A DNA stretch of 64,000 nt, from NCBI GenBank assembly GCA_965218295.1, contig CBDCKN010000003.1, positions 480,001 through 544,000 of the forward strand, read 5' to 3'. The position numbers and the translations under genes are program-made. Position 1 is the stretch's first letter; each line of letters starts with the position of its first letter. Shown piece after piece: positions 2,298 through 27,544 of the stretch. The notes beneath the pieces were generated by a model. The model did no database searches. It was given only the letters and a program-made list of their open reading frames with translations, and was not told the DNA's origin. Origin of the DNA: Longimicrobiales bacterium. GTDB lineage: Bacteria > Gemmatimonadota > Gemmatimonadetes > Longimicrobiales > Gaopeijiaceae.

Positions 2298-3357
2298 ATG
2301 AAACGATCGGTGGTGGCGTTGGGCTCTATCCTCCTCCCCTCCATAGCGCCTCCGTCAACAGCCCGGGCTCAACAGGGCCCGTGGGGCCTCACGGCGGTCG
2401 AGGGGATCACGGTCGGGCATCACACCCTGAGCGAGAGGCCCACCGGCTGCACCGTGATCCTCACCGGAAAGGGTGCGGTCGGAGGAGTGGACGTCCGCGG
2501 CGGCGCGCCTGGCACGGTCGAGACCGATCTCTTGGATCCGGTGAACTCCGTGCAGGAAGTCCACGGCATCATCCTCTCCGGCGGCAGCGCCTTCGGGTTG
2601 GCTGCCCGAGACGGAGTCATGCGCTACCTGGACGAGAAGGGCATCGGATACCGCATGGGGTCCATCGTGGTACCCATCGTGGTCGGTGCCATCCTCTACG
2701 ATCTCCCTGTGGGGGGACGACCCCGGTGTTCGCCCGGGCGCCGAATGCGGATACCAAGCGGCCGCCCGGGCCACCGGAGACACGCCCGCCGAGGGGAATG
2801 TGGGCGCAGGGGAGGGAGCCACCGTTGGCAAGCTCCGAGGCATCCCGCGCGCTATGAAGAGTGGGATCGGGACCGCGTCGATTACACTGCCCAGTGGCCT
2901 CACGATCGGAGCTATCGTGGCGGTCAACGCGGTGGGCGACGTCATCGACCCGTCGACGGGCGCCGTGATCGCGGGAGTCCGTACAGCCGACGGCCGGGGC
3001 CTCGCCGACGCCCGGGTGCTGCTGCGGGAAAGTCGCGAGTCGAACGAGCCCCAGAGCGGGGCCAACACCACCATCGGGGTCGTTGCGACGAACGCCGTGC
3101 TCACCCAAGCCCAGGCCACCAAGGTGGCGCAGATGGCCCAGGACGGCTTCGCCCGGGCGATCTATCCCGCGCACACTATGGGGGACGGAGACACCGTCTT
3201 CTCCCTCGCCACCGGCACCTTCGACGGCGATGCGTCCGTCTCCACGATCGGAGCCCTGGCGGCGGACATGGTCACCGAAGCCATCTTGGGGGCCGTGCGG
3301 GCGGCCACCGGCATCGAGGGGATTCCCTCCGCCTCGGACCTCAACACGGGCCGGTGA
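2298..3357 (+). CDS. P1/S58 (DmpA-like) aminopeptidase with signal peptide, frameshifted at the G-run ~2711-2716
   Basis: Motifs GITVGH, TGCTV, DVRGGAPGT, LSGGSAFGL, then in the next frame GNVGAG, NTTIGVVATN and DGDTVF. Confidence 0.88.
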
Positions 3358-3474: not shown

Positions 3475-4896
3475 GTGAACCTCGAGCTGGTAGTCCTAGT
3501 GGTCTACTCGGCCATCCTCATCGGCCTCGGCCTTTGGATCGGCCGGCGGGTGGAGAGCAGCGGGGGGTTCTTCGTGGCGAACCGCAAGCTCGGAGCAGCG
3601 CTCATCTTCTCCACCGTGCTCGCCGCCAACATCGGCGCGGGCAGCACCGTGGGGGCCGCCGGGCTCGGCTACCGGGACGGCTTGGCCGGGTGGTGGTGGG
3701 TAGGCTCGGCCGCCGTCGGCACGCTGATCCTGGCCCTTTGGATCGGACCGCGAATCTGGCGCATCGCCGCGGAGCACGGCCTCTACACAATGGGGGACTA
3801 CCTTGAGCTCCGATATGGCCGGTCCGTTCGGGCGGCCATCACCGGCCTCCTGTGGCTCGGCACCCCGGCGCTCCTGGCGGCCCAGCTCATCGCCATGGCC
3901 AAGATCCTCGAGTTCGTGGCGGGGGCGCCCGAGTGGGCCGGCGTCCTTATCGGCGGGGTGGTCATGACGGCCTACTTCACGGCCGGCGGGCTCCTTACGT
4001 CCGCCTGGGTCAACATGGTCCAGCTCGTGGTCCTGGTACTCGGCTTCGCGGTGGCCCTGCCCTGGGCCTGGGCAGCGGTAGGGGGTTGGGAGGGCGTGGT
4101 GGCCGCCGCGCCCCCATCCGGGGATTACTTGGACTTCTGGCAGGGAGGTCGCTCGGGTTGGATCTACCTGGCGCTCCTCGGGCCGAACTTCATGGTCTCG
4201 CCGGGACTCGTCCAGAAGGTATACGGAGCCGTAGACGAACGGGCCATTCGCCTGGGCCTGGGAGCCGCAGCCCTTGCGTTGCTGGTCTTCGCAGTGGTTC
4301 CGCCCCTCTTCGGAATGATCGCCCGGGTCTACGACCCGGCCCTCGTGGACCGGGAGCATGCCCTGATGCTGGTCCTGACTGCCGGCCTTCCGACGCTTCT
4401 CGGGAGCGTGGGCCTGGCGGCGGTCTTCTCCGCCGAGATCAGCTCGGCCGACGCCATCCTCTTCATGCTGTCCACTTCCCTGTCCAAGGACCTCTACAAG
4501 CGCTTCCTCAGGCCCGACGCCGATGACGGACAGGTTCTAAACGTCGCCCGTGGTGCGGCTCTCGCTGGAGGGAGCATCGGCATGCTTCTGGCGCTGGTGC
4601 TGCCGTCGATCATCGACGCCCTCACCATCTTTTACTCCCTGATGGCCGTCTGCCTCTTCATCCCGGTGGTGGCAGGCCTCTACGCGCGCCGGCCCGGAAC
4701 GCCGGAGGCCCTGGCGGCCAGCGGCGTGGGCGTTGCAGCCCTGATCACCGTGGAGCTGGCGGACTTCGCCGACCCATCCCCGTGGCTGAACTCCACCTTC
4801 CTGGGGATCGTGGCGTCGGCGCTGGCCTTTGGCTTGGTCTTCCTGGTGCGCCGCCCCTCCGGGGAGCGGACGGAGGCGGATCAGCGCCTCCGCTGA
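3475..4896 (+). CDS. Sodium:solute symporter family protein
   Basis: About 13 hydrophobic segments, with FFVANR, NIGAGSTVG, LELRYG, YFTAGG and FSAEISSAD. Confidence 0.9.
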   Translation: MNLELVVLVVYSAILIGLGLWIGRRVESSGGFFVANRKLGAALIFSTVLAANIGAGSTVGAAGLGYRDGLAGWWWVGSAAVGTLILALWIGPRIWRIAAEHGLYTMGDYLELRYGRSVRAAITGLLWLGTPALLAAQLIAMAKILEFVAGAPEWAGVLIGGVVMTAYFTAGGLLTSAWVNMVQLVVLVLGFAVALPWAWAAVGGWEGVVAAAPPSGDYLDFWQGGRSGWIYLALLGPNFMVSPGLVQKVYGAVDERAIRLGLGAAALALLVFAVVPPLFGMIARVYDPALVDREHALMLVLTAGLPTLLGSVGLAAVFSAEISSADAILFMLSTSLSKDLYKRFLRPDADDGQVLNVARGAALAGGSIGMLLALVLPSIIDALTIFYSLMAVCLFIPVVAGLYARRPGTPEALAASGVGVAALITVELADFADPSPWLNSTFLGIVASALAFGLVFLVRRPSGERTEADQRLR

Positions 4897-5254
4897 CCGT
4901 CGGCTCTTGGAGCGCCGCGTCAAGAGCGCCGTCCGATGAGGAGCCGCCCGGCACGCCCTGCTTCCGCCTGCGAGAGTTCAAGCAGGCCGAGCCCGTGATC
5001 TCTTCGGCGGCTCGACGATCAGCGTGGCGTTCGACCTGTTCGAGAAGGCCGAGAGGGGTCCGGCCCCTCGTCGGTCTTGGGGGACCGTGCCGATCTGATG
5101 ATGGTCCGATGATACGCACCGATTACCCTCGGGAGCCCTGGAAGAGCTCCGTCGCTCACGCCCCGACCGAGGTCCGCACCGATCTCACGCGATCGCGAGA
5201 CGTCGGGCGAGCTCAGGAGCGCTTCCACCCGACTACCAGTCACCAGGAGGTTCT

Positions 5255-5437
5255 ATGCAGACCCTATCACCGGGCCGGATGCAGGAGCTGTGCGGCTCCA
5301 AGATGGACGAGGGGAGCGCCTGCGGTTTCATGGTCGGAGCCCTGGGAGGCGCCATCATGCTGGGGTGGGTCGTCCCTGCGGCGTTCATCTTCATGTTCAC
5401 GCCGCTGGTATGCGTCCTGGACTACGGACTGGGCTGA
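5255..5437 (+). CDS. Putative double-glycine-leader bacteriocin/RiPP precursor 1 (60 aa)
   Basis: AGGAGG RBS at 5245-5250. The leader MQTLSPGRMQELCGS fits L(-12)..M(-7)..L(-4).G-S. The core is hydrophobic with 2 Cys, and the gene lies upstream of a C39 exporter. Confidence 0.7.
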   Translation: MQTLSPGRMQELCGSKMDEGSACGFMVGALGGAIMLGWVVPAAFIFMFTPLVCVLDYGLG

Positions 5438-5484
5438 TCGCCCGTCGCCATTCGACCCACTCTTCCCCCAAGCAGGAGATCATC

Positions 5485-5661
5485 ATAACAGAGCTCACGA
5501 CCTATCAGATGGCTGATATCAACAGTACGAGCTTCTGGATGGGCTTCCTTTGCGGTGCCGGCATCATCTCCTCGATCGCCATATCGGCCTCCCCGGACCC
5601 CGTTGTGAGGTGGACCATCTACAGCGGCACGGTCGGTGCTTGCGGACTAGCGTTCTTTTGA
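5485..5661 (+). CDS. Putative precursor peptide 2 (58 aa, ATA start, possibly degenerate; alternative ATG at 5509)
   Basis: AGGAG RBS at 5474-5478, 6 nt before ATA. The leader (I/M)TELTTYQMADINST has the same spacing as precursor 1. Core SFWMGFLCGAG...GACGLAFF has 2 Cys. Confidence 0.6.
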   Translation: MTELTTYQMADINSTSFWMGFLCGAGIISSIAISASPDPVVRWTIYSGTVGACGLAFF

Positions 5662-5717
5662 GTTGGTCGGGCTGGGCGTGACCGGGGCGCCCAGCCCGTC
5701 GCCTCACTGTCATTTCG

Positions 5718-7273
5718 ATGGGTGACCTCTCCGACGACCTCCTGCTGGTCACACGACACAAGCTCCTAATCGTCGGTCGCCGCTTCGCAGACACCGTACG
5801 CAACACACTCGAAGGGAAGATGGCTCTGATCGTCATGTTGGCCGCCCCCTTCTTGATGAAGAGCATGCTAGGGTCCGCGTCCCTGCGGGCCGCGAACGCC
5901 AGCCGCGATGCGGCCGGCGTCATACTCACGCTCGCCCACGCCGCGACCGTGGTTGCGCTGATTCTGGGCGTTGCCGCACGCACCGCTCGCTCGCTGATCG
6001 TCGAGAAGCAAGAGGAGCCCCTGGCTCTGTACACGGGTGGGAGGCGTGGTCTCGCTGCCTATGACCTGTGGGGAGAAGTGGCGGCGACCGGCCTCTGGCT
6101 CCTCTTCTTCTTCTATCTCTTCTACGGCGCCTTGATTTATGGCCTGGCGACTCAGCCGCTCCTGGTCCTGCCGATGCATCTCCTTGCGCACTTTCTGGTG
6201 CTGGGCGCCCTCGGAGCACTGGCCTACCGCTGGACCCTTCGGATCCTGGAGAGACGGCCGGCGATGGGTCGATCTCTCTACATCGGGACCAGTGCCGGCG
6301 CTGTGCTCGCGTTCCTCGCCATGGTCGGGTCGGCGACACTTCTCGAAGATGTCGCGCCCGGGTTGATGGCCCCGCTGGTGGTGTGGTTCGACGGGGCCGC
6401 CGTTTTCTATCCTCCGCTCGCTGCGCTGGTCCAACCCACGAACAATCTCCTTGGCCCGCTGATGTGGGTAGCCGGCGTCGTGGCTGCTCCCGCTGTTGCC
6501 CTGAAGGCGGCCGGCCCACTGATGCGCGAGCCGAGTCCCCTGCTGCTGGGCGACGTTGAAGCGCTGCCAGAGCGCCCCTTCACGAGCACCTTTCGGACAC
6601 AGTGGCACCCCAAGGCCCGTGGTATGGCCGGCATTCGCTTGTTCTTCCTGAAGGACATCCTTCTTCCCACGACCCGGAATCCCCGCAATTTCCTCACCAG
6701 ACAGTGGATCCTGCTCGCCGTTGCCGTGACGGCACCTGTCGTGATGTGGCAGCTCCGAGGTGAGGGGCGCGTGAGCGAGATCGCGGCGGAGGCCGCCTTG
6801 TGGGGAGTGGTGATGGCGCTTCCATCGGTCGCCGCCTACTTGGGCGGGCTTGGCTCGCTCGGACGGGAGGGGCCGGAATTGGCGCTGATTCGTCCATTCC
6901 TCCGGCCAGCCACGCTGTGGGGCTACAAGGTGCTTCCAGTCCTAGCTGCCGTGGTGCCGTACGGACTCGTGTACGGAGCCATCACGGGAGCCACCGCCGC
7001 CGGGCTGGCCCTCGAGCCTGGACCGTTGCCGGCAGCGGGCGTGGGTGGACTGACCGGAGTCGTCGCCGCCGTGAATGCGGTCGCTCTGGGGTTCCTGTCT
7101 CCCGACTTTGGACGCCGGAGCGTGCTCGCAACGGGTGCGTCGAGGACCGCACGGAAGTGCTGCCCGCCGAGGCGTTCGCCATGACCCTGGTCACCACGGC
7201 GGGCTTGGGCGTGACGATGGGGGGAATCATCACCTTCTTCGCCCTTCGTCGACTCCCCTACCTGGAGACTTGA
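5718..7273 (+). CDS. ABC-2-type multi-TM permease (putative immunity/export), with a frameshift or deletion near 7150-7185
   Basis: Many TM segments, FFLKD and SLGREG motifs. The last TM helix (MTLVTTAGLGVTMGG...) lies in another frame ending at 7273, next to an ABC ATPase. Confidence 0.7.
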
Positions 7274-7274
7274 G

Positions 7275-8042
7275 ATGACGGACGCACCGTCGATAAGAAT
7301 CGACCGGCTCACCAAGAGTTTCGGCCCGGTGCTGGCCGTCTCCCAGTTGAGCATGACCGTCGATGCGGGTGAGATCGTCTGCTTCCTGGGCCCAAACGGC
7401 GCAGGCAAGACGACGACCATCGCCACGATCATGGGTCTCAAGAGACCCACAGCCGGTGACGTGTTCATCAACGGCGTGAGCCTTCGTGCGCCAAAGGTCG
7501 AATCAGTCCGTAGAAGTATCGGCTATCTGCCGGAGCAACCGGTGTTGTACGACTATCTCACGGGTCGGGAGTTCGTCCAGTTCTTCGGCCAGCTTTACCG
7601 AGCGGACAGGGCATTGGACAGCTGGCTGGACGATCGGCTGGCCGCCCTACAGATGAGTGAGGACGCAGATCGGCTGATCAAGGGCTACTCGGCGGGAATG
7701 CGGAAGAAGATCTCCTTCCTCACGGCCCTGGTCCATCAGCCCGACATCCTGATCTTCGATGAGCCCACCGGCGCGCTGGACGCTCTCAGCTCCCGCATTG
7801 TCAAAGATGAGATGGTCGCCGCCCGAGACAGAGGCTCGTTGGTCTTCTTCACGACTCATGTCATGGAGATCGCGGAGCGCCTGGCGGACCGAATCGTCAT
7901 TATCAATAACGGACAACTCGTAGCAGACGGGACACTCGCCGAGTTGCGGATGGCGCACGGCCGAGAGACCGGCGAATCACTCGAGAGTCTATTCCTCCGC
8001 CTGATTCAACTGACGGGGTCCCGAGCAGGCCAGAGCGAATGA
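7275..8042 (+). CDS. ABC transporter ATP-binding protein
   Basis: Walker A GPNGAGKT, signature YSAGMRKK, Walker B ILIFDEP and H-loop TTH. Confidence 0.95.
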   Translation: MTDAPSIRIDRLTKSFGPVLAVSQLSMTVDAGEIVCFLGPNGAGKTTTIATIMGLKRPTAGDVFINGVSLRAPKVESVRRSIGYLPEQPVLYDYLTGREFVQFFGQLYRADRALDSWLDDRLAALQMSEDADRLIKGYSAGMRKKISFLTALVHQPDILIFDEPTGALDALSSRIVKDEMVAARDRGSLVFFTTHVMEIAERLADRIVIINNGQLVADGTLAELRMAHGRETGESLESLFLRLIQLTGSRAGQSE

Positions 8043-10190
8043 TGCCTTTGGCGCTTTCTCGACTGGCACGATGGTGCGCCCGCACCGTGAACCCCCACCC
8101 GGTCGTCCGTCAGTACGATCGCGTTGATTGCGGCCCCGCCTGCCTACTTTCAGTGCTACGGTTCCACGGCGGCGATACCGGGCTCCCCCGGGTTCGATCC
8201 TTGAGTGGCACCGACGCGAGCGGGACCAGCCTCCTTGGGCTCCATCGCGCCGCCGTCGCCCTCGGATTCGAAGCCTGCGGCGCCACCGGCGACTATGACA
8301 GCCTGCGCAAGGAACGAGTGCCGTGTATAGCCCACGTGGTTGTCGAGGGAGCTCAGCACTACGTCGTCGTCTATGAGGCCCGAGACCGACGGCTGAAGGT
8401 GGGCGACCCGGCTCTCGGACCTCGGTGGCTCACGCGTGAGGATTTCGAAGGTATTTGGAGTCAACGAGCCGTCTTGCTCCTACACCCCGGCCGGGATCTC
8501 CTCCGAGAGCACCCAGCTCATTGGTTCCGATGGGTTCTCGGCCGCATCCGCCACGTTCACGGGTGGCTGGTGCAGTCTGTGTTCCTCGGGGTGATCTACA
8601 CGATTCTGGGTCTCGCTACGGCGGTCGTGGTTCAGCGACTGATCGATGACTTCATCGAGATGCGTGACGTGTCGCGGATTCTGTTGGCCGGTGGGTTTCT
8701 TCTTGCCCTCCATGCATTGAGGGGATTGGCCGGATACCTCCGTCAGCGGTTCTTGGTCGGACTCTCCAAGAGAGCCTCGAACGCAATCGCATCGGAGTTC
8801 CTGGAACACCTGTTCCAGCTTCCCGCTCGTTACTTCGAAACGCGAAAGCGTGGAGACATCATCGCACGTCTGCAGGATGCCTCGCGTATTCAAACCGCGG
8901 TCTTGGAGATTCTGGGGAGCACGACCGTCGACGTACTCATCACGGTGCTGTCGATGGCTGCCGTCTTCTACTTCTCGCCACCACTGGGTTGGATCGCACT
9001 GATCCTCTTGGCACCCTACGTCCTCGTCACAGGCACCGCGGCACGACAGATTCATCGGGAGTATCATGCGGCCCTGGGCGCTTATGGGCGGCTTCACGCT
9101 TCCTATGTCGACGCCATCGAGGGCATCGACTCGATCCGCGGGCTCGGCGTCGGACCGGCCTTCACTCGGCTGAACCTGGCGCTCTTCGGCCACTTCCAAA
9201 CCCGGGTCGAGCGGCTCGGACTCACACGTGCCGCGATCGGATTCCGGGTCGAGGGTGTGAGCAGCGCCCTGCTGGCCACGATCCTGACCGTCGGCGCCCT
9301 TCTAGTGGTGACAGGAGATCTGCGCCTCGGGGCGATGATGGCCGCCTACTCGCTCGTTGCCGGCACCTTGCCGAGCCTGCAGCGAGTCATGGAGGGCCTC
9401 TTCGCGTTTCAAGGCGGCGGGGCCGCGGCCCAAAGGCTGCAGGACCTCATGCTCACCGCCCCGGAAGAGAGTAGCGGGGAGCGTCCGTTCCGGATGAGAG
9501 TGGACTTGAGGTTGGACGCCGCCCGCTTCGAGTGGCCCAACGGAGAGCCGGTTCTGAACGGAGCCAGCCTGACACTCCGGCGCGGACGGATCACTGGATT
9601 GAGCGGAGCGAACGGATCCGGCAAGACCACGCTCGTTCATCTCCTCACGCGGCGCTATCCACTGAATGGGGGACGTTTGAGGATCGACGGCGTAATGGCG
9701 TCGAGCATCGACCTTCAGGCGTATCGTCGGCAGGTAGCCGCCGTTCCAGAGGCTGTGAAGATCTTTCACGGCACTCTTGGTGACAACATCGTTCTCGCAC
9801 GGGAGGAGCTTTCTCGGGAAGAGCTTACCGACCGCCTTCGTGACCTCGCGGTGGGCTCGTTCATCAGTCGCTTCAAGGGGGGACTTGCCACCATGCTCGG
9901 CGAGGACGGCCGTCGCTTGTCTGCGGGTGAGCGGCAGATGATCGGTCTGATACGCGTGCTGCTATGCCGGCCCTCGGTTCTCATCATCGATGAGGGCCTG
10001 AACGCCCTGGACCCCCAGCTCTACCGGACAGCCATCAGGGCCCTCGCAGCGCACGCCTCCCGAGGAGCGGTTCCTCATCTCTCATCACCCTTCCGTGTTG
10101 GCCCTCGCCGATGAGCAACTCCGCCTCGAAGGGGGCGTCATCACCTCAGTCATGGGGCACGAACCGGGGCCCGACGCCGAGGCGGCCTGA
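8039..10190 (+). CDS. Peptidase-containing ABC transporter (C39 peptidase + TMD + NBD), with a frameshift at ~10073
   Basis: C39 motifs QYDRVDCGPACL, HYVVVY and GDPA, then GANGSGKT, LSAGERQ and IIDEG. The H-loop LISHH and the C-terminus continue in a shifted frame to TGA 10188-10190. Confidence 0.92.
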
Positions 10191-10195
10191 GCCGA

Positions 10196-10837
10196 GTGTC
10201 CCGCGGAATGGCCACTTGGCGCATCTTCATTCTGATCGCCTGCGTCTGGCTGGCCGTTTCTGCATACACGAATGAGAGAGTGCTCGCGCCGGAGGTGATG
10301 GCAGGCGTGGCCAGCCGTACCCCCGGGGTCGAGATGTCGGTCGCGCAGCTCGACCAGCTACGCCGACAAGGACGCTGGGCATACCTCCTGCTTCCCGCGC
10401 TCCTGGCGATCCGCGTCGCCGTCGTAGCCCTGGCACTTCAGTTGTTCTCGACGTTGATGGCGCACCCCCTGCCCTACCGCGAGGCATTCCGCGCGGGCCT
10501 CTGGGGCTTCGGGGCCGTGATCTACGGCACATTCGTTCGGATGCTGAGGCTCGATCTGCTCCCGTCTGGCGCCCTCACACGGGAAGAGCTCGCAGTCGTT
10601 CCCGATTCGCTGGCGGTTTTGATCTTGGGAGCGGGAGAGCGTGTCACGGTCCTGTCCGCCGCCTTGGGCCTGCTTAGCCTCCATGACGCCTTCTGGATCG
10701 TGGTCATCTCGGCGTACCTCCATGCCTTCACCGGCCTGGAGCGCCGTGTGGCCATCGCCATCGCCGTGTCCGGATGGCTGACAATGGCGCTGGCCCGCCT
10801 CGGCGCCCAGGCCTTCATGATCGGAATGCTCAACTGA
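10196..10837 (+). CDS. Multi-pass membrane protein, Yip1-like
   Basis: About 5 TM segments with a soluble loop after TM1, as the last gene of the exporter operon. The family call is by resemblance only. Confidence 0.55.
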   Translation: MSRGMATWRIFILIACVWLAVSAYTNERVLAPEVMAGVASRTPGVEMSVAQLDQLRRQGRWAYLLLPALLAIRVAVVALALQLFSTLMAHPLPYREAFRAGLWGFGAVIYGTFVRMLRLDLLPSGALTREELAVVPDSLAVLILGAGERVTVLSAALGLLSLHDAFWIVVISAYLHAFTGLERRVAIAIAVSGWLTMALARLGAQAFMIGMLN

Positions 10838-11428: not shown

Positions 11429-11566
11429 TGGGGCCGACACCTGACGCTCGACATCCCGTGACGCCGAATACACATTAGTTGGCGCAGGGGAGCGGCGTTG
11501 GGCCCGTCCGGGCTCACCAAATGGTCCGGCAGATCTCGCACCAGGCCCCTCGCTAGGGGGCACTGG

Positions 11567-13206
11567 ATGCCGAATCTACAGACAAGGTCTAGCACTCGAA
11601 TGGGCTCCTGGAGTGGCCCGAGGGAAGGTCTCCTCACCACTCCCGCGGAACTGGTCCGGGGGCTGGCTCGCGTGAATCTGCCTCTATACGTCGTCGATCA
11701 CGGCGATACCTTCGCGTTCTCCCACGAGGGCACCGTCGAGCTCGGTGGCGATCCCCAGGTGGAAGGCCTCCCTCTCCTGGCCCTGGCCCCCGTATGCAAG
11801 CCCCAGCGCCTGGGATCCGCTGGATTCGCCCGTGACCACGGCGTCCGTTTCTGCTATCTGGCAGGAGCCATGGCGAACGGCATCGGCTCGGTGGAGCTCG
11901 TGGAGGCCATGAGCCGAGCGGGCATGCTCTCCTTCTTCGGCGCCGCCGGCCTCGGGCCGGATCCTATCGAAGACGCCATTGACCACATTTCCACCCGCCT
12001 GGGCGATCTCCCCTGGGGCTTCAACCTCATCCACAGCCCGTACGAGCCCAGGCTCGAAGAGGTGGTGGCCGACCTCTACGTGCGCCGCGGTGTGAACCGG
12101 GTATCCGCCTCGGCCTATATGGATCTCACGCTGCCCCTGGTGCGCTACCGGCTCCACGGGATCCATGCGGACTCGTCGGGCCGGGTGGTGACGCCCCATC
12201 GGGTGGTGGCCAAGGTCTCACGCACCGAGGTGGCCCGGAAGTTCTTCGCCCCCGCTCCGGCCAAGATGCTCGCCGAGCTGGTAGCCCGCGGAGACCTCAC
12301 CGAGGAGCAGGCCCGCATGGCGGAGACCGTCCCGGTTGCACAGGACCTGACGGTGGAGGCCGACTCGGGCGGCCACACCGACAACCGGCCCGCCATCACC
12401 CTGCTTCCCACCATGCTGGCGCTTCGCGATCGGCTCCAGGTGGAGCACGACTACGACGCCCCCTTGCGTGTGGGTTCCGCTGGCGGCGTTTCGACGCCAC
12501 ATTCCGTGGCTGCGACGTTCGCCATGGGGGCCGATTACGTCCTGACCGGCTCGGTGAACCAGGCGTGTCGCGAGGCCGGAACGTCGGACGCCGTCCGGAA
12601 GATGCTGGCCCAGGCGAAGCAGGCCGACGTGACCATGGCTCCGGCCGCGGACATGTTCGAGATGGGCGTCAGGTTGCAGGTCCTCAAGCGCGGAACGATG
12701 TTTCCCATGAGGGCTCACCGCCTGTATGATCTCTATAGAGCCCACGCGGGCCTCGAAGACATTCCCGACGACGAACGACTGAATCTGGAACGGACGATTT
12801 TCCGTACGTCATTGGACGAGATCTGGGAGGAGACACGGCGCTTCTGGGAGGCTCGAGACCCGGCCCAGGTCGAAAAGGCCGAGCGCGATCCGAAGCATCG
12901 GATGGCCCTGGTCTTTCGGTGGTACATGGGCATGTCGTCCCGCTGGGCGAACCGCGGTGAGCCGGGTCGTGAGATGGACTACCAGGTCTGGTGCGGCCCG
13001 GCGATGGGTGCTTTCAACGAGTGGGTCCGGGGCAGCGTCTTGGAGCCCTGGGAGAGCCGTCGCGTAGTCAGCGTGGCTCACAACATGTTGCATGGTGCTG
13101 CGGTCATTACACGGGCGAACGCTCTGCGCAGCCAGGGAGTGGAGCTGCCGGCCGAGTGCGTCGACCTCCGCCCCCGCGAACCAGATGAACTCGAGGAACT
13201 GCTGTC

Positions 13207-13210
<4 letters not shown>
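11567..13210 (+). CDS. pfaD: PUFA synthase enoyl reductase PfaD
   Basis: AGAMANGI, NLIHSP, SASAY, EADSGGHTDNRP, LTGSVNQ, APAADMFE and DYQVWCGPAMGAFN. Confidence 0.95.
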
Positions 13211-19476
<6,266 letters not shown>

Positions 19477-19481
19477 CCGCT

Positions 19482-22400
19482 ATGTCCTCACCCGAGCCGA
19501 TCGCAATCGTCGGCCTCGGCGGGGTGCTCCCCGGTGCCGCTACCCCCGATGACTTCTGGCGCGTCGTCGAGGCCGGCATCGACACCGCCTCCGAACCACC
19601 CCTGGGCCGCTGGCACCTGGATCTGGAGCAGGCGTACAATTCCGAGCACGCCCGGGCGGATCACGTCTACTCCCGGCGGGCCTGCTTCGTTAGAGACTTC
19701 GAGCTGGATCCGACCGGCCTGAATCTGCCGGCGGAGCTTGTCGACGCCCTCGATCCCATGGTCCACCTGGCGCTGCACGCCGGCAGGCAGGCGTGGCACG
19801 ACGCCGTCACCGATCCGGTCGATCCCGGACGCGTGGGTGTCATGCTCGGCAACATCGTCCTCCCCACGGCGTCGGCTTCGGCCATGGCCGACTGGATCCT
19901 GGGGCGTCGCTTCGAGCGCGAGCTCTTCCGGGCGGCCGGCGTACCCATGCCCATGGAGGATCGGGTTCCGGTCGGGGCTATCAACCGCTGGGTCGCCGGG
20001 CTTCCCGCCGCCATGCTGGCAAGGGCCCTGGGCCTCGGTGGGGAGCGGTTCTGCCTGGACGCGGCGTGCTCCTCGTCCCTCTTCGCCCTGGAGCTCGCCG
20101 TCGACGCCCTCCGGAGCGGCCGCCTCGACGCCGTCCTCGCCGGTGGACTGTCCCGGCCCGACTCCCTGTACACCCAGATGGGTTTCTCCCAGCTCCTGGC
20201 CGTCTCGCCCACAGGCCGCTGCTCTCCCTTCGATCACAAGGGTGACGGCTTGGTGGTGGGCGAGGGCGCCGGAATTCTGGTAGTGAAGCGCCTCTCCGAC
20301 GCACTGGAGCATGGAGATCGGATCCGAGCCGTCGTGAGGAGCGTCGGCCTCGCCAACGACGTGGAGGGCAGCCTCCTGGCCCCCAGCCAGGAAGGACAGC
20401 TGCGGGCCATGCGAGGCGCTTACGGAGCGGCCGGTTGGCGCCCGAGCGACGTGGATCTGGTGGAGTGTCACGCCACGGGCACGCCGGTGGGTGACGCCGT
20501 GGAGTTCGCGAGCCTGCAGGCGCTCTGGGCCGAGGAGCACGCCCCCGAAGCGAGCTGCGTCATCGGTTCGGCCAAGTCCAACACTGGGCACCTGCTGACT
20601 GGGGCCGGAGCCGTCGGACTTCTCAAGACCGTGTTGGCCATGGAGCACCGGGTTCTGCCCCCGACAGCCAACTTCGAGGAGCCGGGGGACAAGGTCGACC
20701 TCGCCCGGAGCCCGTTCCGAGTGCTGCGAGGGGCAGAGCCCTGGGAGGCCCCGTCGAGTCACCCGCGTCGTGCGGCGGTGAGTGGCTTCGGCTTCGGGGG
20801 GATCAACGCCCACGTGCTTCTGGAGGAGTTCGGGGCGCCCTCGGCCGGGCGTGCCACAGTCGCCGTTCCGGAGCTGCCCGCGCCCGAGGGAGTCGCCATC
20901 GTGGGCATGGGCGCCCGTATCGGGCCGTGGCAGGACCTGGAGTCCGTCCAGCGGCGGATACTGGGCCGCAGGGATGATCATCCGGTTCGCGCCAAGGAGA
21001 ACCACTGGGGGGTCCCGGACCCTCCGCTGGGGTGGTTCATCGAGGAGCTCGAGATTCCCTTCGGCCGCTTCAAGATCCCACCAAAGGAGATCGAAGAGGC
21101 TCTCCCCCAGCAGATGCTCATGCTCCAGGTTGCCGAGCGCGCCATCGCGGACGCCGCCCTGGACGATGTCGAGCGCCTTCGCACAGGTGTGTTCGTGGGG
21201 ATCGAACTCGATCTCAACACGACCAACTATCACCTGCGATGGGCCGTCCGATCCCGGGCCGCGGATTGGGCCCGGAGGCTGGAGCGTCCGACCTCAGGAG
21301 CAGAGTTCCAGAACTGGGTCGACGAGCTCTGCGATTCCCTCACGCCCGCGCTCAACGCCAACCGCACCATCGGCGGTCTCGGCTCCATCGTGGCAAGCCG
21401 GGTCGCCCGGGAGTTCGGCCTCGGCGGTCCGAGCTACGTCCTCGCCAGCGAAGAGACCTCCGGCATGTCGGCCCTCCAGGCAGCGATCCGAGCGCTCCAG
21501 ACCAAACGACTCGACTGTGCCGTCGTGGGGGCCGTCGACCTGTCCGGAGACGTCCGAGCCTTGCTCTCTCTGGCCAGCACGGATGGCGTGGCGGGTGACG
21601 GCGTCCCGCGCCCCTTCGACGGAGAGTCGCAAGGCGTGGTACCCAGCGACGGCGCGGTCGCTCTCGTGCTGAAGCGGGAAGACGAGGCCCGACAGGAGGG
21701 TGATCGTATCTACGCGGTTGTCCGCGGCGTAGGAAGCGCAGGCGGAGACCTGGCGGACGCGAGCGCCGAAGCCATCCGCCGGAGCTGCCGGGAAACCGGT
21801 GTCGACCCCGATGACGTTTTTTACGTGGAGGGCCACGGCGGCGGGGTGCCGAAAGAGGACCGGGCGGAAGCCCGAGCGCTGACAGAGGTCTATGGAGCCG
21901 ACACCATCCTCGGATGCACCAAAGCCCGTGTTGGTCACACGGGAGCTGCGGCGGGGCTCGTCTCGGTCCTCGGGGCCAGCCTGGCGCTTTACCAGCAGGT
22001 GCTACCCGGGACTAACGGACGCGACCGAGCCATGCCTGGAGACGGCTCAGCGGCCGGGCCTGCGCGTGTTCCCGAATCGGACACGGGCTTGATTCCGCTG
22101 GCCGACTCCCGTCCGTGGGTGCGTGATCGAACCGACGGTCCAAGGCGGGCCGGCGTTCTGGCTGTATCTCGAGGCGGATCCTGCTCACACGTGATGTTGG
22201 AGGGACTGGACGAAGCGGCGCGTGAGGAAGAGCGATCGAGTCCCCTGGGCCCGTTGCACGAAGGGCTCTTCGTGGTGGAAGGCGACGACGACGAGGCCGT
22301 GGCCGCCGGCCTGAGACGCCTCGCCGACTTCGCCGGGGCTACGCGGTCGGCTCCAGTGCACGCCCTGGCACGACCCTGGTGGCAGGAACAGTCCCTGCAG

Positions 22401-25400
22401 CCGGGCGCCGCCCGGGCCATTGCCCTGGTCGCCCGTGATGCCGGCGAGGTAGAGAGCCTTGCCCGGTCCGCGGCCGACCAGATCGAGGCGGGTGCCGACC
22501 CGTCGGATCGGAGCGCCGGCCGGGTCTTCTTCTCGCGGGAGCCCCTGGGACCCGAGGCTCAGCTCGCCTTCGTATATCCCGGCTCGGGGAGTCAGTTCAC
22601 CGGAATGGGCCGGGAGCTCTGCCTCCAGTGGCCAGAGATCCTGCGAGCGCGGGAGGCGAGCAGCGAGAAGCTGAGCTCCCAGCTGAGGATGCCGGAGATC
22701 TGGCGGACCGGCCCCACCCACACCGATGCCCGTACGGTGATCCTCTCCCAGGTGGCGCTGGGCACCCTGGCCACGGACCTCATGTCCCGTTTCGGCGTGC
22801 GCCCCGACGCGGTGGTCGGTTACTCGTTGGGAGAGACGGCGGGGCTGTTCTCCACGGGAGCTTGGCACGAGCGGGACGAGATGCTTCGCAGAACCACCGA
22901 GAGCGATCTCTTCGTGACCGAGCTCGCGGGCCCCTGCACCGCCGCCCGCGCCGCCTGGAATCTCGACGAGGATGCTTCGGTGGAGTGGCGGGTCGGGGTG
23001 GTCGACCAGCCTGCCGACAAGGTGAGAGGGGTCCTGGAGGGGCGAGAGCGGGTCTACCTGCTCATCGTGAATACTCCCGACGAGTGCGTCATCGGTGGCA
23101 ACGCGGACGCGGTGGATGAGGCCGTCCAGGCCCTGGGCTCGGCGTTCCATGCGCTCCAGGGTGTCACCACCGTGCACTGCGAGGTCGCCCGCGAGGTTGA
23201 GAAGGCCTACCGGGACTTGCATCTGCTCGATACCCGCCCACCGGCGGGTATGCGCTTCTACAGCGGGGCCTGGGGAGAGTCCTACGAGGTGGACCGGGAG
23301 CGGGCTGCCGACTCCCTCCTTGCCCAGGCGCTCCACGGAGTGGACTTCCCCAAGACCGTACGCCAGGCCTACGAGGACGGCGTACGCATCTTCCTGGAGA
23401 TGGGGCCAGGAGCGTCGTGCACGCGTATGGTTTCGAAAATCCTCGACGGTCTCCTCTTCAGGGCGCGCTCCATCTCCTCGCCGACACAGGACGAGCCGGG
23501 CGCCGTCCTCAGGGCCCTTGCCATGCTCGTGGTCGAGCGGGTGGAGGTCGATCTCACGCTCCTCTATCCCAGCGTCGTCGAGCCCGAGGGCGAGTCGGGA
23601 CCGGCCATCCGGGTTCCCATCGGCCAGGTGGGCCTTGGAGCGGTGCCCGTGGGAACCGTGGCGGCGCAGCCCGTCGGAACCCTACCGACCGCTGAGCCCC
23701 GCGCGTCTCTCCCCACCGAGCTCCCCCCGGGTCTGGCGGTCGCCGTGCGGGCCGCCCAGACCACGGTGGAGGCCCACGAGGCTTTTCTCCGCTCGGCCGA
23801 GCACACACGGCAGCTGGCAGCGGCCCAGCTGGCGCATCAGCGGGAGTTGATGCACGCCTTGGCCAGCGGGGGCACAGCACCCCTGATCCCGGATCTGGGC
23901 GCTGCCGTAGCGGCAGTGGAGTCGGCACCGCCGCCCACCGCCTCTCCCCCGATGCCAGCCGAGACGACCCGCGACGCCCCCGCTCCTGTGCGCTCGATCG
24001 CCCTGGACCGCGACCAGCTAATGGAGTTCGCCGTCGGCTCCATCGGAGATGTGCTGGGTGAGCGCTTCGCCCACGTGGACAGCCACCCGACCCGAGTGCG
24101 ATTGCCCGACGAGCCGCTCATGCTCGTCGACCGCGTCATGGCCATCGAGGCCGAGCCCCAGTCCATGACCTCGGGGCGGATCGTGACGGAGCACGACGTG
24201 CTCGAGGGCGCCTGGTACCTGGACGGGGGACGCATCCCTACGTGCGTCGCTGTCGAAGCGGGGCAGGCCGACCTGCTCCTCTCGGGCTACCTGGGCATCG
24301 ACTCCGAGACGAAGGGCCTGGCCGTCTACCGGCTCCTGGACGCCGTGGTGACCTTCCACGGAGAGCTGACACGGCCGGGTCAGGTCATCGTCTACGACAT
24401 CCGAATCCTCCGGTTCTTCCGGCAGGGCGACACCTGGCTTTTCCGCTTCCAGTTCGACGCCACCGTCGACGGACGCCCGCTCATGACCATGCGGGAGGGC
24501 TCAGCAGGCTTCTTCACTCAAGGAGAGCTCGATGCCGGGCAGGGCATCGTGTTGACCGGCATGGAGCAGCGGGCCATGCCCGGCCGGCGGCCCGACGACT
24601 GGCGAGAGCTGGTCCCCATGCGCAAGGAGTCCTACGACGAAGCACAGGTCGAGGCGCTCCGGCGTGGTGACATGGCCGGCGCGTTCGGCGAGGAGTTCGC
24701 CGGACTCGGCGTGACCCGTCCGCTCACGATCCCCGGAGACCGCATGCGGCTGGTTCACCGGGTCACGGAGCTCGACCCCGAGGGCGGACGCTACGGCATC
24801 GGGAGCATCGTGGCGGAAGCCGACATCCATCCTGACGACTGGTTCCTCACCTGCCACTTCGTCGACGACGAGGTGATGCCGGGCACGCTGATGTACGAGT
24901 GCTGCCTGCACACGCTGCGGATCTTCCTCCTTCGCATGGGCTGGATCGCCGAGGACGGAGCCGCAACATGGCAGCCCATCGTGGGCGTGAAGAGCCGGCT
25001 CAGGTGCCGGGGCCAGGTGCTGGCCTCTACGGAGATGGTCACCTACGAGATCAACCTCCAGGAGCTTGGCTACGACCCCGAGCCCTACGCCATCGTGGAC
25101 GCCATGATGTACGCCGACGGCAAGCTTATTGTGGACATCCGCGACATGTCCGTCCGGCTGAACGGCGCGAGCCGGGCTCAACTGGAGTCCCTTTGGGCGA
25201 ACCGAGGCGCCGGCGCTTCCCCCGACCTAACGCCGAAGAGCACGGCAGCGACGCATGCGAGGACGGAGGCCGCTGACGCCACCCCCTCAGAGTCGCTGGC
25301 CCCCGGGAGCGCTCCCTCCGAGATCACCGTCGTCGAGTCGCCCGGCGCCGCCCCCAAGGTCGTGGCTCTCCATCGGGACCCGTCGGTCCCGTACGACAAG

Positions 25401-26468
25401 GCGAGCATCCTGGCCTTCAGCAGCGGCAAGCCGTCGGAGGCGTTCGGCGAGGTCTACAGCTCCTTCGACAGTGGTCCGCGGCGCATCGCCCGGCTTCCGC
25501 GTCCCCCGTATCAGTGCATCGATCGTGTTACGTCGGTGGAGGGGGAGCCCTTCGTCATGAAGGCGGGGGCCAAAGCCACGGCTCAGTTCGACGTCACAGC
25601 CGACCACTGGTACTTCGCGAGCAACCGCCAAGGCGAGATGCCCTTCTCCGTGCTCCTGGAGGTGGCGCTCCAGCCCTGCGGGTGGCTGGCAGGATACGTG
25701 GGGTCGGCTCTGGCCTCCAACACGGACGTGCGCTTCCGAAACCTGGGGGGCGAGGCCGTCCAGCTGGCCAGGATGACCGCCGGCACAGACGTGATCACCA
25801 CCCAGGTGGAGCTCACCAGCGTCTCCTTGTCCGGGGGGATGATCATCCAGCACTACTCCATGTCGCTGGCCAGCGATCGTCAGGGGCCATTGTACGAGGG
25901 GACCACCTACTTCGGCTTCTTCTCGGACCAGGCCCTGGCTGATCAGGTCGGCATGCGCGACGCCGTCATCCATGATCCCCCGTCAGCGGAGCGCCAGCGT
26001 GGGCTGAGCTTCCCGCTCCCAGGCGAGCGGCCATTCCCCGACGAGCACTTCCGCATGGTGGACCGGATCGATCTCCTGGTGCCCGACGGCGGCCCGAACG
26101 GTCTCGGATGGATCGAAGGATCCATCGACGTCGATCCGGGTGCCTGGTTCTTCGAGGCACACTTCTACCAGGATCCCGTGTGGCCCGGCTCCCTCGGCCT
26201 GGAGGCGTTCGTACAGCTGCTCAAGGCCTACGCCGCCAAGCGCTGGCGTCTCGGTGAGGCGGCCGAGTTCCGTACGCTCCCCAGTGACAACCGCCATCGA
26301 TGGAGCTACCGCGGCCAGATCATCCCGGGTTGCCGGCGCGTGGAGGTGTGCGCCAGCATCACTGCAGTGAACGACGACCGGCGAACCCTCATAGCCGACG
26401 GATTCCTTTCGGTGGACGGCAGGACCATCTATTCGATGAACGATTTCAGCCTGGAGGCGCGCGAGTGA
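19482..26468 (+). CDS. pfaBC: Fused PfaBC (KS-CLF-AT-FabA-like DH domains)
   Basis: KS DAACSSS and HATGT; second KS with Glu in place of Cys (SEETSG); AT GYSLG and TVH; DH motifs WFLTCHF..D.VMPG and WFFEAHF..DPVWPG. Confidence 0.92.
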   Translation: MSSPEPIAIVGLGGVLPGAATPDDFWRVVEAGIDTASEPPLGRWHLDLEQAYNSEHARADHVYSRRACFVRDFELDPTGLNLPAELVDALDPMVHLALHAGRQAWHDAVTDPVDPGRVGVMLGNIVLPTASASAMADWILGRRFERELFRAAGVPMPMEDRVPVGAINRWVAGLPAAMLARALGLGGERFCLDAACSSSLFALELAVDALRSGRLDAVLAGGLSRPDSLYTQMGFSQLLAVSPTGRCSPFDHKGDGLVVGEGAGILVVKRLSDALEHGDRIRAVVRSVGLANDVEGSLLAPSQEGQLRAMRGAYGAAGWRPSDVDLVECHATGTPVGDAVEFASLQALWAEEHAPEASCVIGSAKSNTGHLLTGAGAVGLLKTVLAMEHRVLPPTANFEEPGDKVDLARSPFRVLRGAEPWEAPSSHPRRAAVSGFGFGGINAHVLLEEFGAPSAGRATVAVPELPAPEGVAIVGMGARIGPWQDLESVQRRILGRRDDHPVRAKENHWGVPDPPLGWFIEELEIPFGRFKIPPKEIEEALPQQMLMLQVAERAIADAALDDVERLRTGVFVGIELDLNTTNYHLRWAVRSRAADWARRLERPTSGAEFQNWVDELCDSLTPALNANRTIGGLGSIVASRVAREFGLGGPSYVLASEETSGMSALQAAIRALQTKRLDCAVVGAVDLSGDVRALLSLASTDGVAGDGVPRPFDGESQGVVPSDGAVALVLKREDEARQEGDRIYAVVRGVGSAGGDLADASAEAIRRSCRETGVDPDDVFYVEGHGGGVPKEDRAEARALTEVYGADTILGCTKARVGHTGAAAGLVSVLGASLALYQQVLPGTNGRDRAMPGDGSAAGPARVPESDTGLIPLADSRPWVRDRTDGPRRAGVLAVSRGGSCSHVMLEGLDEAAREEERSSPLGPLHEGLFVVEGDDDEAVAAGLRRLADFAGATRSAPVHALARPWWQEQSLQPGAARAIALVARDAGEVESLARSAADQIEAGADPSDRSAGRVFFSREPLGPEAQLAFVYPGSGSQFTGMGRELCLQWPEILRAREASSEKLSSQLRMPEIWRTGPTHTDARTVILSQVALGTLATDLMSRFGVRPDAVVGYSLGETAGLFSTGAWHERDEMLRRTTESDLFVTELAGPCTAARAAWNLDEDASVEWRVGVVDQPADKVRGVLEGRERVYLLIVNTPDECVIGGNADAVDEAVQALGSAFHALQGVTTVHCEVAREVEKAYRDLHLLDTRPPAGMRFYSGAWGESYEVDRERAADSLLAQALHGVDFPKTVRQAYEDGVRIFLEMGPGASCTRMVSKILDGLLFRARSISSPTQDEPGAVLRALAMLVVERVEVDLTLLYPSVVEPEGESGPAIRVPIGQVGLGAVPVGTVAAQPVGTLPTAEPRASLPTELPPGLAVAVRAAQTTVEAHEAFLRSAEHTRQLAAAQLAHQRELMHALASGGTAPLIPDLGAAVAAVESAPPPTASPPMPAETTRDAPAPVRSIALDRDQLMEFAVGSIGDVLGERFAHVDSHPTRVRLPDEPLMLVDRVMAIEAEPQSMTSGRIVTEHDVLEGAWYLDGGRIPTCVAVEAGQADLLLSGYLGIDSETKGLAVYRLLDAVVTFHGELTRPGQVIVYDIRILRFFRQGDTWLFRFQFDATVDGRPLMTMREGSAGFFTQGELDAGQGIVLTGMEQRAMPGRRPDDWRELVPMRKESYDEAQVEALRRGDMAGAFGEEFAGLGVTRPLTIPGDRMRLVHRVTELDPEGGRYGIGSIVAEADIHPDDWFLTCHFVDDEVMPGTLMYECCLHTLRIFLLRMGWIAEDGAATWQPIVGVKSRLRCRGQVLASTEMVTYEINLQELGYDPEPYAIVDAMMYADGKLIVDIRDMSVRLNGASRAQLESLWANRGAGASPDLTPKSTAATHARTEAADATPSESLAPGSAPSEITVVESPGAAPKVVALHRDPSVPYDKASILAFSSGKPSEAFGEVYSSFDSGPRRIARLPRPPYQCIDRVTSVEGEPFVMKAGAKATAQFDVTADHWYFASNRQGEMPFSVLLEVALQPCGWLAGYVGSALASNTDVRFRNLGGEAVQLARMTAGTDVITTQVELTSVSLSGGMIIQHYSMSLASDRQGPLYEGTTYFGFFSDQALADQVGMRDAVIHDPPSAERQRGLSFPLPGERPFPDEHFRMVDRIDLLVPDGGPNGLGWIEGSIDVDPGAWFFEAHFYQDPVWPGSLGLEAFVQLLKAYAAKRWRLGEAAEFRTLPSDNRHRWSYRGQIIPGCRRVEVCASITAVNDDRRTLIADGFLSVDGRTIYSMNDFSLEARE

Positions 26469-27544
26469 GGTATTCGCGTGTGGTCATCGAGGGGTTCGGC
26501 TACGAGCTGGCGCCGTGCATCGTCACGTCCGACGAGCTGGAGGAGAGGCTGGCCCCAGCCTATCGCCAGCTGCACATCCAGCCAGGCCAGTTGCTCCTCA
26601 TGACGGGGATCCGGGAGCGCCGCTACTGGGATCCGGGATACACTGTAACCCAGGGCGCCACGGCCGCCGCCCTGAAGGCGCTCCGCGACTCGCCCGTACC
26701 GGCCGACGCCCTCGAAACGCTGATCTACGCCGGCGTGTGCCGGGAGCACTTCGAGCCCGCCACGGCCTGCCACGTCGCCGCCGGCCTGCACAAGGCCGGC
26801 CAACCGATCCGGCCGTCGGCCCACGTCTACGACGTGAGCAACGCGTGTCTCGGCGTCCTGAATGGCATTCTCGACATCGCAAACCGCATCGAACTGGGCC
26901 AGATCCGAGCGGGGATGGTGGTGAGCTGCGAGACCGCCCGGGCCATCGTCGACACGACCATCGCCCGCCTCAACGGCCGTCCGGATATGGAGGAGTTCAA
27001 GACGGCCATCGCAACGCTCACGGGTGGATCGGCGGCCGTTGCGGTGATCCTGAGCGACGGCTCCTTCGGCGAGTCGGACAGGAGGCGCCTCCGAGGAGCG
27101 GTGGTCGAGACGGCCCCCGAGCACCACATGTTGTGCCGCTGGGGCTTGGAGGCCCACCCCGAGAGCCAGGCGAACGGGGCAGAGTCCAGCCTGCGGGAGT
27201 TCGCGAGCACCGACGCGCCGGCCGTTCTCGAGCACGGAGTCGCCTTGGGCGCCCGCACCTGGGACGAGTTCCTCAAGGAGATGGAATGGCCCGTCGAGCA
27301 GGTCAACCGCACGGTCTGCCACCAGGTCGGGTCGGCTCACCGAGAAGTAATGCTGCGGACCATGGGCCTTGCTCCGGAGCACGACTTCGTGACCTACGAA
27401 TATCTGGGTAATACTGGCACCGCGGCGCTCCCGGCGGCGGCGGCCCTGGCTCAGGAGCGGGGATTCATAGAGCCCGGACATCGGGTCGGCCTTCTCGGCA
27501 TCGGCAGTGGCCTGAACTGCATGATGTTGGGAGTGGATTGGTGA
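26465..27544 (+). CDS. oleA: OleA thiolase/FabH-like condensing enzyme
   Basis: GTGA overlap with pfaBC. TGIRERR, FEPATA, NACLG, CHQVG, GNTG and LLGIGSGLN. Confidence 0.9.
   Translation: MRYSRVVIEGFGYELAPCIVTSDELEERLAPAYRQLHIQPGQLLLMTGIRERRYWDPGYTVTQGATAAALKALRDSPVPADALETLIYAGVCREHFEPATACHVAAGLHKAGQPIRPSAHVYDVSNACLGVLNGILDIANRIELGQIRAGMVVSCETARAIVDTTIARLNGRPDMEEFKTAIATLTGGSAAVAVILSDGSFGESDRRRLRGAVVETAPEHHMLCRWGLEAHPESQANGAESSLREFASTDAPAVLEHGVALGARTWDEFLKEMEWPVEQVNRTVCHQVGSAHREVMLRTMGLAPEHDFVTYEYLGNTGTAALPAAAALAQERGFIEPGHRVGLLGIGSGLNCMMLGVDW

Follow-up and report, generated by a model that had tools for sequence, protein, structure and literature searches.

A conserved gene cluster of paired double-glycine-type peptides in Longimicrobiales, most like class IIb bacteriocin systems in its gene content

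Gene content of the locus

We analysed a 64,000-nucleotide stretch of DNA (hereafter the window; G000:C3:480001-544000) from a 3.57 Mb, 91% complete genome of the Longimicrobiales, an order within Gemmatimonadota (PMC11316326), and focused on a cluster in which genes for two small peptides, A and B, are followed by genes for an ATP-binding cassette (ABC) exporter permease, an ABC ATPase, a C39 exporter, that is, a peptidase-containing ABC transporter (PCAT), and a Yip1-like membrane protein (Table 1). The cluster, which occurs in numerous uncultured Gemmatimonadota, is a real, conserved and apparently undescribed variant of the unmodified double-glycine peptide systems, unusual in having no adaptor in a double-membrane host and a relaxed leader end. 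Bacteria of the Longimicrobiales type have two membranes, and the presence of resistance-nodulation-division (RND)- and MacAB-like efflux genes in the source genome is consistent with this.

A sequence-only reading of the window had proposed two small leader-bearing open reading frames (ORFs), each with its own ribosome-binding site, and we recovered both, each preceded by CAGGAG. Its identification of the ATPase and the C39 exporter was likewise upheld by clear Pfam matches, whereas the names permease and Yip1-like hold by remote evidence, these two proteins, like the two peptides, having no direct match in Pfam or NCBIfam. The Yip1-like gene probably starts at the ATG at 10208.

Table 1 Features of the peptide cluster, in window positions
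Feature	Position	Strand	Remarks
Ribosome-binding site of peptide A, CAGGAG	5242..5247	+	sequence; kept in both congeners (G001, G002)
Precursor peptide A, 60 aa	5255..5437	+	15-aa double-glycine-type leader ending GS; hydrophobic 45-aa core
Precursor peptide B, 58 aa	5485..5661	+	Cys23, Cys53, central SPDP turn; damaged allele
GC-rich stem-loop between peptide and transport genes	5665..5703	+	-30.3 kcal/mol, z -2.8
Multi-pass ABC exporter permease	5718..7273	+	541 aa in G001; frameshifted in the window
ABC ATPase, 255 aa	7275..8042	+	PF00005, E 1e-29; likely partner of the permease
Peptidase-containing ABC transporter (C39, membrane and ATPase domains)	8039..10190	+	PF03412+PF00664+PF00005
Remote Yip1-like multi-pass membrane protein, 209 aa	10208..10837	+	remote homology only

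Conservation among relatives

A profile of the permease was searched against 401 genomes of the order and against metagenome contigs. It matched at least 17 of the 401 genomes, all in the family of the window (16 of its 256 other genomes; 0 of 71 and 0 of 73 in two other families), together with 14 metagenome contigs, the count of 17 being a lower bound since G242 carries the cluster yet was not among the matches. The order permease, ATPase, C39 exporter, Yip1-like gene was kept in 14 of the 16 genome loci, the exceptions being a locus that stops at a contig end and one that has no Yip gene and lies beside an insertion sequence; the ATPase directly follows the permease in 15 of the 16, the remaining one standing at a contig end. 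The same order was found in G242 and in G528, a genome from another family of the class. Whole-looking loci are present in 7 of the 16 genomes (G354, G396, G359, G365, G355, G295 and G385). These neighbourhood comparisons cover Gemmatimonadota; a tree of 23 C39 exporters was mostly without support (3 of 20 inner branches).

Upstream of the permease we compared 29 loci (the window, 16 genomes and 12 metagenome contigs, with L047 omitted as a duplicate and L052 for having no upstream DNA). All 29 hold at least two leader-bearing small ORFs within 950 bp, with one gene broken in L046, L051 and L065; some hold three peptide genes and none a single precursor. The conserved synteny, with precursor ORFs upstream of homologous exporters, that the sequence-only reading had suggested checking is present. 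A B-type peptide is the constant member, and its partner is of type A in the clade of the window, of type C in a second clade and of other types in G385 and G242.

The precursor peptides

Both precursors have hydrophobic residues at positions 4, 9 and 12 and core cysteines at positions 23 and 53, in line with the earlier claim of equal leader spacing and two core cysteines in each. The window cores are 43-45 aa long, and that of peptide A combines its two cysteines with GxxxG and the family motif 'FTP-x3-C'. When a filter made of the leader, CG-x28-35-C and hydrophobicity was applied to 1,871 candidate small ORFs with ribosome-binding sites in the whole genome, only peptides A and B passed; since this filter was drawn from the peptide family itself, the result indicates rarity rather than function. 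Peptides A and B are remote homologues (hhalign, 95%), and A also aligns with C as a remote homologue.

A search with the B profile found 93 database proteins, of which 76, those whose leader the pattern could place, were used for leader and cysteine counts. The two core cysteines lie 30-37 residues apart in 69 of these 76. All 52 intact locus peptides have Pro or Gly at mid-loop, and 51 of the 52 contain GxxxG, in a set picked with the cysteine pattern and for a motif that is common in Gly-rich hydrophobic peptides generally; the N- and C-terminal tails of the core outside the cysteine pair vary widely in length. Between genera (in comparison with genus g75) the ratio of non-synonymous to synonymous substitution rates (dN/dS) was 0.17-0.28 for both peptides, which indicates that both are under purifying selection at that distance. 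Within the genus it was 0.55-0.88 for the peptides versus about 0.2 for the ATPase, values based on only 4-6 synonymous changes. The fixed cysteine pair and the low dN/dS agree with the conserved peptide-pair system with a C39 exporter that had been proposed, and no result on conservation spoke against it.

The constancy of the B-type peptide beside partners that differ by clade (A, C and others, with three peptides at some loci) would also fit an arrangement in which one peptide is active and the other serves as an enhancer or a self-protecting partner. In several strains of the window's species peptide B alone is broken while the transport genes are intact (frameshifts in runs X3 and X4 and in P0238, an ATA start in X1 and X7), and in thermophilin 13, according to PMC10059821, ThmA is active alone. 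We nevertheless regard this arrangement as improbable, given that no single-precursor locus occurs among the 29 and that the A and B families are under similar purifying selection.

Profile matches to known bacteriocin families were weak: PF10439 (Bacteriocin_IIc) matched 4 of 26 B peptides (best E 5e-4) and TIGR03949 (lactobin A/cerein 7B) 2 of 26 (E 0.027). Searches of PDB sequences with the peptide B and Yip profiles returned nothing significant, the best being a leader-only match to carnobacteriocin B2 (E 0.13). Four B homologues (P0229, P0234, P0236 and P0237), as read by eye, begin with a segment resembling a signal peptide, which precedes a double-glycine-type leader and a core with the family's cysteine pair; one of the four is assigned by its source to an Acidobacteriota metagenome-assembled genome. 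This suggests a Sec-exported branch of the peptide B family.

In 19 of 24 loci the stem-loop after the last peptide gene scores a z below -1.5, and the stem sequences differ between loci. It is predicted to stabilise or attenuate the transcript and, by analogy, would keep the peptide message in excess over the transporter message.

Export genes and leader processing

In the C39 exporter, Gln25, Cys31, His107 and Asp123 align with PCAT1, and the catalytic Gln/Cys/His/Asp set is invariant in 19 of 19 cluster exporters. C39 domains are described as reading hydrophobic residues at -12/-7/-4 and cutting after GG, GA or GS (PMC6363468, PMC10885120). The leader of peptide A fits this pattern fully; that of peptide B in the window ends ST, and the GG/GA/GS ends named earlier hold for peptide A but not for B. 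Position -2 is Gly in 48 of the 53 locus peptides and in 75 of 76 database homologues. The -1 residue is G, A or S in 33 of the 53 locus peptides but M, R, T, I, E, L, D or K in the other 20, and it deviates likewise in 29 of the 76 homologues. Such leaders might be export tags only, often uncut or cut elsewhere, in which -1 has drifted. The invariance of the catalytic residues and the near-invariance of Gly(-2) argue otherwise, as does the free length of the segment after residue 15, which is expected just past a cut site, and we consider the tag-only explanation quite improbable.

The permease (541 aa in G001) has its language-model neighbours in PF16962, PF09847 and PF16949 (score 0.96). 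In its predicted structure (pLDDT 81, pTM 0.50), residues 295-541 match type V ABC membrane domains, namely CcmB (Z 13.5), NosY (13.4) and the peptide exporter PmtCD (Z 12.6, rmsd 4.0, 219 aligned); the top 20 fold matches are all ABC transporters, and the ATPase gene adjoins. The likeness to type V-fold ABC exporters (PmtCD, CcmAB, NosFY) thus lies in the predicted fold of the C-terminal half and in the stand-alone adjacent ATPase, whereas sequence identity to them is 7-15%. No direct Pfam match was obtained in 28 permease homologues, and Foldseek gave no match at E<=0.001 for the permease or the Yip1-like model.

At 50% clustering, 102 homologues of the last gene were found. PF04893 (Yip1) matched 10 of 80 remote homologues, one above the cut-off, and neither the window protein nor 13 close homologues. 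In the Atlas, Yip1 was assigned to 17% of the members of the top cluster, and the neighbours were Yip1-bearing Bacteroidota clusters. The model was confident (pLDDT 93), and a wide fold search gave nothing above Z 6.7. These results make a fair case for a remote Yip1-like protein. In both circular and leaderless bacteriocin clusters, Yip1 genes are repeatedly found next to accessory ABC genes (PMC8659200, PMC11580447, PMC10707071), and their role there is described as possibly transport or immunity (the same sources and PMC8534725).

Absent genes and disulfide formation

We scanned 72 of 105 extracted flanking ORFs, most of the other 33 either duplicating neighbours already covered or lying farther out. 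No HlyD was found inside any cluster or among the 72, and the adaptor profile TIGR01843 had no match over its cut-off in the source genome. Four HlyD_3 (PF13437) genes of that genome sit, as read by eye, beside MacB- or RND-like genes. By contrast, an adaptor-like gene immediately precedes an unrelated C39 exporter in G040 (also read by eye). Among the same 72 ORFs there was no radical SAM, YcaO or LanM/LanB protein and no recurring modifying enzyme; a methyltransferase gene is found at a single locus, at a distance of three genes. The earlier statement that the window span has neither HlyD nor a modifying enzyme can thus be extended to the clusters and their scanned flanks. Elsewhere in the source genome (G000:C6:17328-18437), a transposase-like ORF, as read by eye, interrupts the TolC-like gene of a MacAB-type operon.

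The sequence-only reading had left open whether the pair is disulfide-looped or cyclised. A disulfide loop is favoured by the fixed cysteine pair and by a thioredoxin-like gene with a CxxC motif (CDHC) directly before the peptides in a related locus, L108. DsbA-family genes are present elsewhere in the source genome; VKOR was not found in this 91% complete genome. In the alternative, the peptides would be joined head to tail after leader removal, by the ATPase and the Yip1-like protein together with the large membrane protein. Yip1 genes, an ATPase and a large membrane protein are indeed reported from circular bacteriocin clusters (PMC8534725, PMC8659200), and many cores end in hydrophobic residues. 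However, SpoIIM/DUF95 (PF01944) was absent from the cluster proteins and their homologues, and its best score in the source genome, 20.2 bits on another contig, fell below the cut-off of 26.9; the core tails vary widely in length; circular clusters, as far as PMC8534725 describes them, are almost all without a peptidase gene; and the predicted fold of the large protein resembles that of ABC exporter membrane domains. Cyclisation is on these grounds the least probable of the explanations considered here, and we rejected assignment to the circular bacteriocins, in whose clusters DUF95/SpoIIM is required.

Condition of the window copy

The earlier reading overlooked that the window copy is damaged in three genes, those of peptide B, the permease and the exporter. 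Peptide B begins with ATA (5485-5487) where the congeners have ATG, and Ser replaces Gly at leader position -2 (codon at 5524). The permease has lost 70 bp near 7147, between short direct repeats, so that its ORF runs from 5718 to 7184 and the true C-terminus continues in another frame to 7273. In the exporter, a 2-bp deletion near 10074 ends the ORF at 10114 and removes the H-loop histidine, the original frame ending near 10190; the motifs described earlier as intact are so in the peptidase domain only.

Public runs show that the ATA start is a real allele, which occurs also in X1 and X7 (one sample), with ATG in X5 and X8, and the Ser codon in X1, with Gly in X5, X7 and X8. Runs X2-X5, X7 and X8 contain the 70-bp segment, as do G001, G002 and, judging by piece lengths, X1, and the two exporter bases are found in G001, G002 and 4 of 4 runs, which makes both losses private to this strain or assembly. 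As about 31 kb of aligned flank contains no window-specific coding frameshift, real decay is favoured and general sequencing noise is unlikely to lie behind the breaks, while a local assembly error may account for the 70-bp and 2-bp deletions. Overall, the window copy is probably inactive through decay. None of 24 runs was listed as an RNA run carrying the cluster, which says nothing about expression. Breakage recurs among relatives: peptide B is separately frameshifted in X3, X4 and P0238, the exporter is broken in G001 and the permease in G002, and G335 lacks the Yip gene along with a portion of the exporter.

The spacer before the Yip1-like gene also varies. In the window (10193-10207) it is 60 bp shorter than in G001, a trait common to runs X2-X4, and in G002 (L014, region 3690-4710) it has a further 164-bp palindrome-rich insertion.

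Age of the locus and its surroundings

The cluster had been described as more AT-rich than its flanks and hence as possibly acquired. Its GC content is indeed lower (0.59-0.67 per 500 bp versus 0.66-0.71 upstream), but only mildly so: among 2,017 inferred genes, the percentiles of GC at third codon positions (GC3) were 8 for the C39 exporter, 15 for the ATPase, 18 for the permease and 42 for the Yip gene, and codon-adaptation percentiles were 9-28 for these four large genes. In addition, the next gene after the cluster is pfaD in 7 loci, which belong to three genera. We therefore rejected recent horizontal acquisition on the basis of the codon percentiles and the shared neighbourhood; an old locus that has been vertically kept and often lost would fit better.

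Upstream in the window, the his genes (18-990) appear to span two frames, and a peptidase S58 gene (2298-3357) is split across two reading frames. A sodium:solute symporter occupies 3475-4896, where the congeners (L013, L014) and genus g75 have M1 and M24 aminopeptidases, and similarity to the congeners stops near 5050-5080. Downstream (11498-31388), a PfaD-like enoyl reductase is followed by very large genes like those of iterative polyketide synthases or polyunsaturated fatty acid synthases (2,089 and about 2,380 codons), a region kept in both congeners; pfaD of G002 has about 450 extra bases at its 5' end (L014 near 3130-2690).

Related and relic loci

Locus L108 (7432-13704, genome G468) contains a close Yip homologue (E 5e-46) in a rearranged setting with a membrane-anchored CxxC thioredoxin-like gene, two shorter cysteine-pair peptides, a C39 exporter, an ATPase and a 546-aa membrane protein. 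This last protein is not alignable to the permease profile, for which reason L108 was counted as related rather than orthologous. The same combination of parts thus occurs in two arrangements, one with its own candidate disulfide catalyst. L109 (2424-5106, genome G483) encodes a truncated Yip homologue, an ATPase and a membrane protein of 545 aa; within 16 kb neither a C39 exporter nor a peptide was matched, and the locus is possibly a relic or a stand-alone resistance cassette.

The metagenome contigs L045-L047 carry relic clusters in which the peptides are kept and the permease is cut at about residue 290, with no ATPase, C39 or Yip match in the DNA available; peptide B of L046 has lost its second cysteine and its stop. 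In three genomes of genus g10, the peptides are closely preceded by two unannotated genes in divergent orientation (about 285 and 390-480 aa; L054:2928-5191, L056:2998-5237, L059:9572-11830), for which Pfam had no match at E 1e-6. One remote Yip homologue was searched against plasmids and matched nothing, and a cluster look-up of 10 remote homologues yielded no informative names.

Comparison with known systems

By its genes, the cluster would work most like a class IIb bacteriocin system. With lactococcin G, plantaricin EF/JK and thermophilin 13 it has in common adjacent genes, two unmodified peptides, 15-residue double-glycine-type leaders, GxxxG and a dedicated C39 exporter, and the thermophilin 13 cluster likewise combines a two-cysteine peptide with a thiol-disulfide oxidoreductase (PMC10059821). 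It differs from them in its diderm host, in the fixed cysteine pair in both peptides and the near-neutral cores, in having a second ABC exporter and a Yip1-like gene instead of a small immunity gene, an accessory protein and a three-component regulator, and in a leader -1 that is often not G, A or S and profile matches that are only weak.

Class IIa microcins of the microcin V type offer a second comparison, sharing a double-membrane producer, a double-glycine leader, a PCAT, disulfides as the only modification and hydrophobic, neutral or anionic cores (PMC10233263). The present cluster has no membrane fusion protein, shorter cores, paired precursors and no adjacent small immunity gene, and we rejected this assignment as no HlyD/CvaA adaptor accompanies the PCAT in the clusters or their scanned flanks. 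The circular or leaderless Yip1 clusters of cerecyclin and bawcin resemble it in a Yip1-family protein beside accessory ABC genes and in small hydrophobic peptides, but they are without a C39 exporter or double-glycine leader, and the circular ones have DUF95/SpoIIM. The accessory ABC system of bawcin is described as a trio of HlyD, ATPase and permease (PMC10707071), in place of which an ATPase and a type V-like permease are found here.

We found no description of this arrangement in the open-access literature (supplements not covered), which leaves the earlier suggestion of a possibly undescribed system standing. A survey of Gemmatimonadota, in the part available to us, lists Nif11-type bacteriocins and microcin annotations and not this system.

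Proposed function and mechanism

Taken together, we favour, at slightly better than even confidence, an unmodified two-peptide, class IIb-like bacteriocin pair that is cut and exported by the C39 exporter, each peptide being clamped by one disulfide, and served by a second ABC system and the Yip1-like protein. Under this proposal, the C39 exporter would cut the precursors after residue 15 and move the cores across the inner membrane. A PCAT that has no adaptor crosses only the inner of the two membranes, and the cores would thereby end up in the periplasm; there, a housekeeping protein of the DsbA type could join the two cysteines across the Pro/Gly turn. The oxidised cores would form hydrophobic helical hairpins with GxxxG faces, and the pair might act on membranes through GxxxG helix packing. 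GxxxG is reported as common to all characterised two-peptide bacteriocins, which are proposed to pair through it and to make membranes leak (PMC2850506). Clearing the peptides from the inner membrane of the producer, for self-protection or onward release, may be the task of the second ABC exporter together with the Yip1-like protein. Patchy presence in the order, combined with repeated breakage, fits a dispensable competition trait.

Several observations weigh against the bacteriocin pair. Class II microcins are described as needing a PCAT, a membrane fusion protein and TolC (PMC10233263), and with no adaptor in the cluster it is not apparent how the peptides would cross the outer membrane. 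Whether the leaders that deviate at -1, among them that of peptide B in all three genomes of the window genus, are cut in the canonical way is uncertain. Core net charge runs from -4 to +4 in the intact locus peptides (-2 and 0 in the window), mostly near neutral and not cationic; the cores are conserved rather than hypervariable; and none of the weak bacteriocin-family matches falls on the window's own peptides. The 29 upstream loci contain no small hydrophobic ORF besides the precursors, and so no small dedicated immunity gene, although immunity could be provided by the Yip1-like protein (209 aa) or by the ABC pair. No regulator, receptor or sensor kinase recurs in the scanned flanks. Finally, the fold scores of the permease (Z 12-13.5) lie in a range flagged as possible for any helical bundle.

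Some of these observations would suit a role in the producer's own envelope, with the peptides being processed periplasmic or surface components (structural, adhesive or signalling) placed by the second ABC system and the Yip1-like protein. There is no adaptor for one-step export, the cores are neutral, very hydrophobic and under purifying selection without an immunity gene, and the Sec-type signal segment read by eye in four B homologues points to a periplasmic destination; double-glycine proteins that are not antibiotics do exist, as reported for biofilm proteins (PMC4997328) and MAM (PMC8836110). An envelope function seems unlikely to us all the same, since the cluster was found in only at least 17 of 401 genomes of the order with many copies broken, since peptide size, GxxxG and pairing agree with two-peptide bacteriocins, and since no sensor kinase or receptor recurs beside the cluster.

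More tentatively, as possible though rather doubtful, we put forward a two-step, adaptor-free export route, in which a C39 exporter with relaxed demands at -1 (Gly-X) would deliver the paired hairpin peptides to the periplasm for disulfide clamping and a dedicated type V ABC exporter with the Yip1-like protein would then extract them from the inner membrane, to be released or assembled.

Implications

The cluster provides a compact candidate family of peptide antibiotics from a phylum of which few members have been cultured. Its precursors, about 50 of them linked to loci and 93 found in databases, are barely recognised by Pfam and NCBIfam profiles. Because the cores need no tailoring enzyme, direct synthesis and testing are possible. 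The cluster also makes testable whether C39 exporters accept leaders ending in Gly-Met, Gly-Arg or Gly-Glu and what Yip1-type proteins do in bacteriocin clusters, and it presents a PCAT kept without an adaptor across many double-membrane genomes. If the two-step route is true, it would give a bacterial Yip1 protein a defined and testable substrate, and Gemmatimonadota would hold a new peptide-antibiotic family with a Sec-exported branch in Acidobacteriota.

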